DNA of 64,000 nt from a virus, in the IMG/VR virus record IMGVR_UViG_3300025237_000001, positions 1 to 64,000 of that record, one strand, 5' to 3'. The notes under the pieces were generated by a model. It did no database searches. It saw only the letters and a list, made by a program, of their open reading frames with translations, and was not told the origin of the DNA. Positions 25,977 to 37,200 of this stretch are shown here, piece by piece. The stretch's first letter is position 1; each line of letters begins with the position of its first letter. The position numbers were made by a program, and so were the translations under genes.

Positions 25977-25993
25977 ATTAAATTTATATATAA

Positions 25994-26749
25994 ATGAAAA
26001 ATAAGAACAATATTAAACCTACAGGATTAAAAGGTAACGACCAATTAAGTAGAATGAAAAGCTTAATGGGTGTAGCATCTATTACTGAAAACACAAAAAC
26101 TTCGGTTGTGGAATTAACTAAAACAGGTCCTGATGGAAAGGTATATGGTATCGTTAGAGAGAACCATAAATATTTCATTAAAATAACTAACAAAAAACAA
26201 AATTTAATTGCTGAGGACTTCAGATATATGGGTGGGTTGCAAAACAAAACCGAAAAATCTTATGATAGTTACTCTCAAGCAACTAAACAATTAAATCTTA
26301 AATTCTTAAGCTTAAATGAAGCGTTAGATAAAACTGAGCAAATCAATGTTTTACAAAACGATAATTTATTAGCTGAATCTTTTGATTCTTATTCTGAAAA
26401 ACCAAAGAAAAGTCAACCAGACTCTACTTTAGGAACTGTTAAAGAAATAGGAAAAAACGATGGTCATGAAGAAGAAATCATTGCAGATACTGGTGAAACT
26501 GGTAACCCTGATGTGAAAACTCCACCAGTTGTTGAAGAAGATGAAGATGTAAACGAAGATACTGATGAAATAACTGAAGAAGAAGTTGTTGAAGAAGAGG
26601 ATGTCGTAGAATTAACTGAAAACGAAAAAGCTATTGATAACATCATTCGTGAACTTAAAGCAGAAACTTTAAACGAAAACAAACCAAGCATTACTACAGC
26701 GATACACAAAATCAAAGAGGGAGAAGAAAGCTCAAAAAAAAAAGTGTAA
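25994..26749 (+). CDS. head-region hypothetical protein (N-terminal part of a putative frameshift fusion)
   Basis: Many [ILV]xE motifs, acidic region; ends in SSKKKV on an A10 run. Confidence 0.7.
   Translation: MKNKNNIKPTGLKGNDQLSRMKSLMGVASITENTKTSVVELTKTGPDGKVYGIVRENHKYFIKITNKKQNLIAEDFRYMGGLQNKTEKSYDSYSQATKQLNLKFLSLNEALDKTEQINVLQNDNLLAESFDSYSEKPKKSQPDSTLGTVKEIGKNDGHEEEIIADTGETGNPDVKTPPVVEEDEDVNEDTDEITEEEVVEEEDVVELTENEKAIDNIIRELKAETLNENKPSITTAIHKIKEGEESSKKKV
26734..26746 (+). other. A10 slippery run, candidate -1 frameshift or transcriptional slippage
   Basis: TCA AAA AAA AAA GTG TAA; the -1 frame is open from 26659 and runs into ORF 26806..28146. Confidence 0.6.
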
Positions 26750-26805
26750 CTGAAACTAAATTTAAACTTAAATTAGATAACCCATCTCCTGAGCAACCTC
26801 AAGAA

Positions 26806-28146
26806 ATGGGTTCTCCTGTTTCTGGTGGAGAAGAATTTGGTGGTGAAGAAGACTTTGGTGGCGGTGAAGTAGAAGACTTTGGCGGTGGTGAAGCTTCAAG
26901 TGAAAAACCATTTGATGAAGAACCATTTGACGCTGGTGTAGAAGCTAGTGAAGATGATAGCCCAGAAAAATACATACAACAAATATCAGGTAAGTTAGGT
27001 CAAAGCCTAAGAAAATATACTGACGAAATGGGGCAACCAGATTTCGACTTAGAAAAGTTTGCAATCAATTCTGTATTATCCGCAACCAACTCTGGTAAAA
27101 TGGATAGTGGAGACCAATCCGATATAATTCAAAAAGTTAAATCGTCATCTACTGATGGTAGTGGTGGTAATGGTGTAGACCATAATGACGGAGCTAATGA
27201 CGGAGCTGATGACGGAGCTGAAGATTTAGATACATCTGATGAAGGTGGTTTGGATTTAAGTAATATCGACATGGAAGAAAGTGTTAACCCTAGTGGTTGT
27301 TTTCCTCAACCAATTGTTGATAGACAAATAGAGAATATTAAAAAAGAAAGTGTAATAACTAAAGAACCTGTATCTAAAGAATTTGTAGGTAAAAAAGTTA
27401 GTGTAGATTTTAGAAAAGAAATTGGAATTGTTAAGGATTATGACGATAAAGAAGTTGTTATCCATTTCCCAGATTTAGGATTTACTGAAAAAATTAATTA
27501 TAAAATGGTTGAAGTATTATTTCAGGAAGATGGTCAAGTTGACGAAGCTTTCAACCCTAACCCAAATGGTAAGACTGTGTTTCAAGATGCCGCTTTAGGT
27601 GTTAAGGAAGATGGTATGGAAGAGAATAAATATTTAAACTTGGAAAGCACTAAGAAAAGTAGTATAATTGCAACTAAACTAAGAAATATGTTACAGGAAA
27701 AAGAAATCATTACTATTGGTGGGCAAGTTTATGACCCTAAAACAAAACCACAAGTACAGCCACAAGTAAAACCTGAAAGAAAAACTAGAAGAGGTAAACC
27801 TTATAGGATTATCCCTGAGCAATTACCTGACCCAAAGCCAAAAGCTGAAAAAAAAAATGATAGCGTAAGTTTTATTAAAGATTCTGGGTTTGCACGAGAT
27901 GGTAATTCAGTAACAATCAAATTTGACATTAATGGTGAAAGGTTTGTATCTAATTTTGTGAATACTGGTGAGTTATTAGTGAAACCAGAAGCTTATGATG
28001 AGTCATGGGTTTATGCATTTGAATCAGAGGTTTTATCAAACGGTAAATCATATAGTGTAGCCGTAGCATTTTTCGGTCACCCAGATACTAATCTTGAGGT
28101 AGAAGAATATGCTGATGGTTCAGTACCAGATATAGAAGAAGTATAA
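26806..28146 (+). CDS. head-region acidic protein (C-terminal part of a putative frameshift fusion)
   Basis: The ORF starts inside a low-complexity G/E/F region; the conserved-looking block KPFDEEPFDAGVEA.E..PEKYIQQ..GKLGQ.LR follows. Confidence 0.7.
   Translation: MGSPVSGGEEFGGEEDFGGGEVEDFGGGEASSEKPFDEEPFDAGVEASEDDSPEKYIQQISGKLGQSLRKYTDEMGQPDFDLEKFAINSVLSATNSGKMDSGDQSDIIQKVKSSSTDGSGGNGVDHNDGANDGADDGAEDLDTSDEGGLDLSNIDMEESVNPSGCFPQPIVDRQIENIKKESVITKEPVSKEFVGKKVSVDFRKEIGIVKDYDDKEVVIHFPDLGFTEKINYKMVEVLFQEDGQVDEAFNPNPNGKTVFQDAALGVKEDGMEENKYLNLESTKKSSIIATKLRNMLQEKEIITIGGQVYDPKTKPQVQPQVKPERKTRRGKPYRIIPEQLPDPKPKAEKKNDSVSFIKDSGFARDGNSVTIKFDINGERFVSNFVNTGELLVKPEAYDESWVYAFESEVLSNGKSYSVAVAFFGHPDTNLEVEEYADGSVPDIEEV
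27184..27219 (+). repeat. 12-bp coding tandem repeat x3
   Basis: (a/g)ATGACGGAGCT units encoding NDGA/NDGA/DDGA. Confidence 0.7.
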
Positions 28147-30294: not shown

Positions 30295-30343
30295 GTTTTT
30301 AAGGCTTAATCGGCACTTTTTACATATTTATATATAAAAAAGT

Positions 30344-36455: not shown

Positions 36456-36476
36456 TCGTAATGATTAGGCTTTTTT
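36448..36476 (+). terminator. rho-independent terminator
   Basis: AAGCCTAATC-gtaat-GATTAGGCTT plus T-run. Confidence 0.75.
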
Positions 36477-36510
36477 GTGTTTATTCGCATATTTATTGAA
36501 AAAGGTATTT

Positions 36511-37200
36511 ATGAACGAATTTAAAGTTATAAGAGGTGGTAGAGCTGGAACTGGATTATTAATTGAAGGTGATGCTGGTTTTATCGAACCAAATGATATT
36601 AGGAACAAGCCATTTGTTACTGAAGCTGCTAAGATAGGCAAAGGTACTGTAATGATTGAACCATTAATCCTATTCGTTGTGTTACAAAAATTTGGTGTAG
36701 AGAACAAGAACGGTAGAATCTATCCAGAACACATTTTAAAAAGAGAAGCTGTTAATTATCAAGAGTTAATTAACAATAGGTCAGCAGTTGGGGAAAGTGA
36801 CCACCCTGAATCATCAGTTATTTCAAACAGTAGAGTTTCACATGAAATCAAAAAGATTTGGTGGGAAGGTCGCACGCTTGTTGGTGAAATAGAAATCATT
36901 ATGTCTCCAGGTTTTATTAATCAAGGAATCATATCTTGTGAGGGTGATAACATTGCAAACATGTTAAGAAAAGGAATACGTGTGGGAGTATCTTCAAGAG
37001 GTGTTGGTTCACTGGATGAAATTGCTGGTAAATTATTAGTGCAAGAAGATTTTGAATTAATATGTTGGGATATCGTTACGAGTCCTAGTACTCCAGGTTC
37101 TTATATGTTCAATAGTAAGTCTGAGGCACAACCATTTATGGAGTCTGAGATAAAGGGGAAAGACCTATTAATCGACAATTTAAATAAATTTTTATTATAA
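36511..37200 (+). CDS. prohead core protease (T4 gp21-like)
   Basis: NKNGRIYP..IL, GESDHPE, VSH, GVSSRGVGS, DIV..PSTPG; ATG 36511 preferred. Confidence 0.92.
   Translation: MNEFKVIRGGRAGTGLLIEGDAGFIEPNDIRNKPFVTEAAKIGKGTVMIEPLILFVVLQKFGVENKNGRIYPEHILKREAVNYQELINNRSAVGESDHPESSVISNSRVSHEIKKIWWEGRTLVGEIEIIMSPGFINQGIISCEGDNIANMLRKGIRVGVSSRGVGSLDEIAGKLLVQEDFELICWDIVTSPSTPGSYMFNSKSEAQPFMESEIKGKDLLIDNLNKFLL

Follow-up and report, generated by a model that had tools for sequence, protein, structure and literature searches.

A conserved poly-A run that probably joins two reading frames of one gene in an uncultured T4-like phage and its relatives

The window analysed here, a stretch of 64,000 nucleotides (nt), is the first 64 kb of the IMG/VR virus record IMGVR_UViG_3300025237_000001, a contig of 197,358 bp with 32% GC (guanine plus cytosine) whose gene set is that of an uncultured, marine T4-like phage. 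Two neighbouring open reading frames (ORFs) of this window, ORF1 and ORF2, lie in different frames on either side of a run of ten A (A10). On comparison with relatives they most likely represent one gene with a programmed slip site and two products. We estimate a probability of about 0.8 that a programmed slip site in a single gene gives two nested products. Standard decoding of the A10 run would end one codon past it and give a short form of 251 amino acids (aa). In a fraction of expression events a -1 move within the run would give a long form of 717 aa, in which SSKKK is followed directly by SVTETKFKLKL. The shift would most likely result mainly from host RNA polymerase adding one A during transcription of the run, with a possible contribution of ribosomal -1 slipping or sliding on the AAA codons, and the protein would be the same by either route.

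The frame break has a simple anatomy. At its 3' end ORF1 reads AGC TCA AAA AAA AAA GTG TAA, in agreement with a preliminary description that was made from the letters alone, and the run is exactly 10 nt long. Both non-productive frames close right behind it, as the 0-frame TAA and the +1-frame TGA lie within the same seven nucleotides, TAACTGA. The last -1-frame stop before the run lies at 26656-26658. From 26659 onwards the frame meets no further stop until 28146; it reads LKKKSVTETKFKLKLDNPSPEQPQE and then reaches the ATG at 26806 from which ORF2 is called. A -1 shift in the run joins 250 and 467 residues to a product of 717 aa with the junction SSKKKSVTETK. The open -1 frame leading into ORF2, the size of about 717 aa and the VTE motif in the continuation had all been pointed out in the preliminary description, and each agrees with the sequence.

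The conservation of this arrangement was assessed in a collection of homologues, in which ORF1 as query retrieved 27 IMG/VR loci and an alignment of its N-terminal domain (N-domain) retrieved 160 more from IMG/VR and metagenomes. Some contigs were retrieved twice and counts were therefore made by distinct sequences. Among 175 classifiable homologous loci the downstream region stands in the -1 frame in 153, broken at runs of A9 to A12, in the +1 frame in one, and in frame, i.e. fused, in 21. The question of whether homologues keep the split at the poly-A run, raised in the preliminary description, is thus answered positively, and its proposal of a short 251-aa and a long 717-aa form from one gene is supported by this conserved split. 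Considering the junction itself, 85 of the 86 distinct 42-nt contexts have the run and the -1 break, and one requires +1. The run and the frame break are kept among diverged homologues with conserved peptides on both sides, and the A run is maintained in about a hundred related phage lineages.

Junction anatomy was measured on the 76 unique loci whose downstream ORF is complete. Of these, 65 have A10, eight A9, two A11 and one A12, so that 9 is the minimum. The distance from the run to the end of the next stop is 4-27 nt (median 6) in the 0 frame and 4-28 nt (median 13) in the +1 frame. The -1 frame opens at most 30 nt before the run in 73 of the 76 loci and within the run in 13. Due to the nearby stops on one side and the late opening of the -1 frame on the other, the run is the sole place where a shift can join the frames. 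Variants of run length preserve the -1 relation, arising by substitution in the flanks or by a change of 3 nt: the sister loci L148 (A9) and L064 (A12) differ by 3 nt and keep the frame, and the A11 of L073 is the product of a flank substitution. Locus L098, an A9 sister of an A10 locus, requires +1.

The same picture was obtained at the protein level. A search for long ORF1 relatives among 5.8 billion proteins returned 38 long proteins of the ORF1 type, every one of them ending in KKK followed by 1-6 residues. The search also returned 82 fused matches, 73 of which are of a run-less outgroup type described below, and no fused form with more than 55% identity to the window over the whole of ORF1.

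The -1 continuation is coding. The bridge between the run and the ATG at 26806 is read in the -1 frame only, and its peptide is kept in all relatives and lies within the single ORF of the outgroup homologues. In the window's clade the variable columns of the 63-nt bridge number 8, 5 and 14 (of 21 each) at -1-frame codon positions 1, 2 and 3. In all loci the -1 frame reads KKK[S/R/E][L/I/V] after the run; the motif E-x-K[YF]KLK[LV] follows 8-58 codons farther on, then DKPFDDEPFDAGVEA and then a helix with YIQQLxGKLGQSLR. Since this conserved peptide precedes any start codon, the continuation that includes it cannot initiate alone. The first ATG lies at a median of 40 and a maximum of 158 codons 3' of the run, past the GKLGQ motif in 19 of 42 loci, and five loci (L056, L091, L136, L152 and L187) have more than 150 codons free of ATG, GTG and TTG. 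In L002-L006 an insert of 145 aa stands directly 3' of the run and is open in the -1 frame only.

These data bear on the proposal that ORF2 is a separate gene translated from its own ATG at 26806, with the run and the -1 overlap being coincidental. Members of the window's clade share this Met codon, and gene callers annotate ORF2 homologues as distinct proteins; the phage's own genes have no evident Shine-Dalgarno (SD) sequence, which makes the lack of one at ORF2 uninformative. However, a conserved peptide lies upstream of the ATG, many lineages offer no start codon for 100-158 codons, and the outgroups are single ORFs. In addition, the ATG is enclosed in an RNA hairpin, as the preliminary description had noticed, with z = -3.85 versus shuffled sequences. 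The stem ACCCAU/AUGGGU and its adjoining codons are invariant in 12 clade members, synonymous sites included, and no compensatory pair change was found among these 12. The hairpin probably masks the internal AUG and may hinder starting or restarting there. Taken together, two separate genes seem very improbable to us. The same hairpin was considered as a canonical stimulator of -1 frameshifting and rejected, because it begins 35 nt 3' of the A10 run, a spacing that is too long, and lacks covariation.

Outgroup loci (L001 and L021-L025) carry the N-domain, the motif [LIVM]xE-x-YKLKV and the GKIGQ helix in one ORF, and have no A run at the corresponding place. A quick maximum-likelihood tree was built from 110 distinct N-domains. 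It separates 104 run-bearing rows from 6 run-less fused rows by a branch with a Shimodaira-Hasegawa-like approximate likelihood-ratio test (SH-aLRT) value of 94, as would be expected if the run arose once. Of the 104 run-bearing rows, 98 have an out-of-frame consensus. The other six are in frame (A11 in the L068 type, A10 in L141 and L161) and cluster in a single nested group, and their sequence ..ILKKKRLTE.. is the product that a reading of the split relatives with one additional A predicts. In this subclade the two other frames stop 1-3 codons past the run.

The existence of the in-frame subclade is one reason to consider phase variation at the DNA level, in which a contingency tract would alternate between A10, giving the short form only, and A11, giving the long form, without any recoding. 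Homopolymers mutate fast, the A9 variant L098 needs +1, and three fused proteins, P0138, P0141 and P0145, are placed in otherwise split lineages (a scan of viral contigs with P0141 gave no match). Against this, the in-frame state is clustered in one subclade and not scattered, and clear purifying selection acts on the 470 codons downstream in lineages whose consensus genome could not express them. Furthermore, the length changes that keep the frame, as in L148 and L064, argue for selection on the frame relation itself. Phase variation as the sole explanation is in our view unlikely, and only slightly less so than two separate genes. A sequencing or assembly error in an error-prone homopolymer, or a decaying pseudogene, is hardly credible given that the same break recurs in 85 distinct junctions from many independent assemblies (TARA, JGI, ENA, IMG/VR), that in-frame forms are limited to one subclade and that both halves are conserved, although some platforms do misread homopolymers and one locus, L128, has an extra in-frame stop. 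In this metagenomic relative (159-1360) the extra TAA lies about 20 codons 5' of the usual run, and it is either an error or the mark of a decaying copy.

We return to the favoured explanation, one gene with a programmed slip site, and to the enzyme that would slip. Bacterial RNA polymerase slips efficiently on runs from about 9 A or T, in agreement with an RNA:DNA hybrid of 9-10 bp (PMC5009743), and a homopolymer of about 8-9 nt or more has been used as the threshold for realignment sites (PMC5009743, PMC3711429). The A10 of the window and the A9-A12 runs of the 76 loci reach this length, and the stops follow close behind, at medians of 6 nt (0 frame) and 13 nt (+1 frame), as at sites of programmed transcriptional realignment. 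By comparison, the stem-loop or pseudoknot of a canonical -1 ribosomal frameshift site is missing at 5-9 nt downstream. No excess of RNA folding was found in the 45-nt flanks of the 76 loci (median percentile 0.65 downstream and 0.41 upstream; 10.5% of the loci in the most stable decile downstream), and the 45 nt 3' of the window's run reach -0.7 kcal/mol. Polymerase slippage is favoured since the run is never shorter than 9 although a heptamer would suffice for the ribosome, and since neither a stimulatory structure nor a general SD-like element accompanies it. Within the favoured explanation, a mainly transcriptional shift would take roughly a little more than half of the weight and a mainly ribosomal one somewhat less than a third, the rest falling to both together.

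Several points weigh against this assignment. That slippage occurs, which enzyme slips and in what ratio the forms are made are all read from the sequence, which cannot separate polymerase from ribosome because the protein is identical whether one A is added or the ribosome shifts by -1. Both routes had been named in the preliminary description. Every locus has an in-phase A_AAA_AAA heptamer, whatever the phase of the run, and thus always offers the ribosome a site for a -1 shift. It is also reported that ribosome sliding on successive AAA codons depends on their number (PMC4363877), and the length constraint is therefore no proof of a transcriptional origin. An SD-like GAGGGAG lies 10 nt 5' of the run in the window's clade, as in E. 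coli dnaX. The conserved Met codon at 26806 would permit some independent initiation of ORF2 in this clade. Runs of ten or more A are not rare in this A-rich genome, with six in 197,358 bp versus about 3.9 expected from composition, a difference that is not significant; the case that the run exceeds chance is consequently made by comparison with relatives and not by the statistics of a single genome. Finally, the three fused proteins in split lineages suggest that A10/A11 variation does occur in the DNA.

Some of these points form the case for a purely ribosomal programmed -1 shift on A_AAA_AAA, with the additional A's being incidental. Besides the heptamer in all loci and the documented sliding of ribosomes on poly-A, the spacing of 10 nt between the SD-like box and the run is the one that stimulates frameshifting in dnaX (PMC5009743). 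Yet no locus has fewer than nine A though seven would do, no stable structure stands at the canonical 5-9 nt or within 45 nt, and the hairpin of the window's clade begins too far downstream. The box, GAGGGAG or GAAGGAG, encodes E-G-E in the window's clade and is missing from most others. Moreover, a run of this length should make RNA polymerase slip anyway (PMC5009743). We regard a purely ribosomal shift as a possible but clearly less probable explanation.

The closest known parallel to a programmed slip site mainly used by the polymerase is found in dnaX genes. In Chlorobi, dnaX consists of two ORFs joined at an A10 run, for which programmed transcriptional realignment was predicted (Antonov et al. 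2013, PMC3711429). There as here, a gene is divided between two frames by a conserved stretch of about 10 A, standard decoding would give the short form and a shift the long one, and conservation of the run among homologues is the main evidence. The protein families are unrelated, and the gene described here belongs to phages and has a variable C-terminal half. In Thermus thermophilus dnaX, transcriptional slippage at an A9 run gives tau and gamma at about 1:1 (PMC5009743). The shared features are a homopolymer as long as the hybrid, stops in both alternative frames right after it and nested products with a common N-terminus. The in-frame A11 subclade of L068 type has exactly the Thermus topology, in which the genomic frame encodes the long form, whereas in the window and most relatives it encodes the short form; with the in-frame subclade and the split majority, both dnaX-like topologies occur within one family. 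E. coli dnaX, which combines A_AAA_AAG with an SD-like element and a stem-loop, resembles the present site in its lysine-codon slip site and in the immediate stop past the shift region and, for the window's clade only, in the SD-like box 10 nt upstream. It differs in its stem-loop, for which there is no counterpart at 5-9 nt here, in a run that here is longer than needed, and in its opposite topology, since the shift here would extend and not truncate the protein.

Transcriptional slippage is also described for Shigella spa13 and mxiE and for Citrobacter tssM (PMC5009743, PMC4256274). In these genes, too, coding runs of A or T give two length variants, the extension being needed for function, but they are bacterial secretion genes of few genera, whereas the present site extends over a wide phage clade. 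Phages use ribosomal frameshifts at heptamers for the tail chaperone G/GT, for T7 10A/10B and for the major head protein of Lactobacillus phage A2. A set ratio of a short and a C-terminally extended late protein from one mRNA would be common to these cases and ours; the differences are the long homopolymer in place of a heptamer and a gene that is neither a tail chaperone nor a capsid protein. Overall, the description of the site as dnaX-like poly-A recoding, widely conserved in an uncharacterised and presumably late phage gene, appears well-supported by these comparisons. We did not find this phage family described in the literature searched.

The consequences reach beyond the window. In hundreds of metagenomic phage contigs, gene callers split the locus into two hypothetical proteins with no stated relation to each other, where the correct gene model would be a single gene with two nested products. 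For viruses of bacteria, the site would add an example of poly-A recoding that is widely conserved and has been stable in evolution. Having topologies with the short and with the long form as default, the family offers a natural system for relating slip rate to protein stoichiometry, and it is equally suited to telling slippage by the polymerase apart from sliding of the ribosome on lysine codons. The conservation further suggests that selection has acted on the ratio of short to long form, and not on either product alone, ever since the run arose, probably once, in the family.

The coordinates of the gene and its surroundings are listed in Table 1. The ORF1/ORF2 pair is flanked on one side by thyA and on the other by three unknown genes that form a conserved block 5' of terL. 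It lies outside the portal-protease-scaffold-capsid block, and the order thyA, two small ORFs, ORF1, ORF2, g28146, g28552, g29016, terL is conserved in relatives. A tail assembly chaperone of the G/GT type was rejected as an identity for the pair due to these neighbours, which provide no tube or tape-measure context. A second, identical copy of the ATTTATATATAA 12-mer that abuts the ORF1 start codon is found at about 30323-30334, upstream of terL, and related (C)ATATTTAT boxes precede head genes; such boxes are found before g25704, g34322, the protease gene and the Nudix gene. This box is a probable late-promoter-like element, and the ORF1/ORF2 gene would then probably be expressed together with the late genes for packaging and head. 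At the far end of the contig (182404-197068), aragorn identified 17 transfer RNA (tRNA) genes, two with the CUA anticodon of amber readers; a lysine tRNA is not among them.

Table 1. Positions in the 64,000-nt window of the split gene, its junction and neighbouring genes.
Feature	Position	Strand	Remark
ORF1, 0-frame product, short form, 251 aa	25994..26749	+	ends SSKKKV-stop
A10 run, putative slip site	26734..26743	+	KKK encoded in 0 and -1 frames alike
TAACTGA	26747..26753	+	0-frame stop TAA 26747-26749, +1-frame stop TGA 26751-26753
Bridge S-VTE-T-KFKLKL-DNPSPEQPQE	26743..26805	+	-1 frame only, 5' of any start codon
VTE motif in bridge	26746-26754	+	-1 frame
KFKLKL motif in bridge	26758-26775	+	-1 frame
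RNA hairpin enclosing Met codon 26806-26808	26779..26812	+	-14.4 kcal/mol
ORF2, called from ATG, 446 aa	26806..28146	+	C-terminal 446 residues of the 717-aa trans-frame product
Second A10 run	27848..27857	+	in frame (..PKAEKKND..), at border of last beta domain
ATTTATATATAA box	25982..25993	+	abuts ORF1 start codon; same 12-mer 5' of terL (30344)
thyA	23889
TerL (terL)	30344
Portal	32268
Prohead protease	36475-37200
Major capsid protein	39063

The ORF1 protein consists of a conserved N-domain (aa about 33-125, a beta sheet and a helix), an acidic disordered linker and two C-terminal helices, and an AlphaFold model has a small sheet-plus-helix domain at aa 37-111 with a predicted local distance difference test (pLDDT) score of 85-90. 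In ORF2, an acidic disordered region carrying DKPFDEEPFDAGVEA is accompanied by a helical bundle that includes YIQQxSGKLGQSLR, a small SH3/Tudor-like barrel, a motif that is basic and Pro-rich and, at the C-terminus, a beta domain. In the AlphaFold model of the -1 product the ordered parts are a three-helix unit, the small SH3/Tudor-like barrel and the C-terminal beta domain, following a disordered acidic start. The barrel is confined to the nearest relatives, and the C-terminal parts vary widely among lineages.

The preliminary description had taken the product for a head assembly or core protein, a reading that no direct test supports. The locus lies outside the head block, and no match was found for ORF1 or ORF2 in Pfam, PHROGs or a PDB profile search. 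Pfam searches with 76 downstream ORFs, 14 N-domains (E<=5) and special segments gave nothing credible. Foldseek against PDB, BFVD and VIA returned only uncharacterised phage homologues and generic folds, with best Z scores of 5.8 and 6.9 for generic small folds; weak matches to a WGR-like fold (Z 4), an SH3/Tudor/KOW-like barrel (Z 6.9) and a streptavidin/lipocalin-like fold (E 0.13) were left unused. The ESM Atlas returned only unnamed viral clusters, and no cultured relative was found, as neither blastn nor tblastn against 50,697 phage records gave a match for ORF1 or ORF2. Proteins of the ORF2 family of 543-734 aa were considered as fusions and rejected, none having the ORF1 N-domain; true fusions were found solely via searches with ORF1. 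Identity as a head core protein is unproven.

The leads that point to a head role are indirect; one is the 12-mer shared with terL, and others recall protein processing in the T4 head. The T4 prohead protease gp21 cleaves at (L/I)xE sites. In the present family, I-x-E at ORF1 aa 30-32 is nearly invariant, and in 71 of 72 loci [LIVM]xE precedes KYKLKL with 0-2 residues between them. These conserved sites resemble those of the T4 protease and also the ends of leader tags of about 12 residues on ART, g41807 and Nudix in the same genome, which terminate in LLNE, ILNE or VLKE. ORF1 itself has no such capsid-targeting leader, its start MKNKNNIKPTGLKG.. being unlike the cargo tags of its own genome. 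We speculate, with considerable doubt, that the gene could serve a loading mechanism similar to Gag/Gag-Pol. The abundant short form would act as a prohead carrier, and the long form would use the N-domain common to both to bring in the variable C-terminal cargo, the slip rate setting its dose. A T4-type prohead protease would cut at (L/I/V)xE just 3' of the slip site and free the cargo from KYKLKL onwards. Under the same idea, A9-A10 runs at other domain borders (27848 in the window; L141 and L185) would belong to a general system of nested isoforms made by slippage.

The run at 27848-27857 is a possible second slip site that would trim the last domain, as one additional A leads to an immediate TGA there; the site is A9-A10 in L002, L009, L109 and L111. 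In L185 (5033-5596) and L141 (1663-2235), which belong to the subclade with an in-frame first run, the fused ORF terminates at a further A10 followed by a stop, and the -1 frame past this second A10 continues for 188-191 aa (..GLAYH.N.NLPLNESIYRYGS..), an extension that has no Pfam match. This may be a second out-of-frame slip site farther 3', and none of the 76 split loci has one of this kind.

A few relatives show further peculiarities. The insert of L002-L006 mentioned above (L003:4714-5160) has neither intein motifs nor a Pfam match, and its flanks, TCA+A10 on the left and TCA+A7 on the right, look like a target-site duplication. In loci of the L068 type (L068:5146-5277; also L077, L161, L162 and L170) the basic Pro-rich motif (..PRRKRIW..KPVVTPKPK) forms a separate ORF of 42-45 codons with its own ATG overlapping the preceding stop (TAATATG). 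In L025 (5159-5173), L026 and L027 the fused ORF of the outgroup, 402 aa from the first Met, ends at an A9 run followed by TAG, which may be a separate case of recoding or chance; past this run the +1 frame is open for 100 codons and includes a hydrophobic segment.

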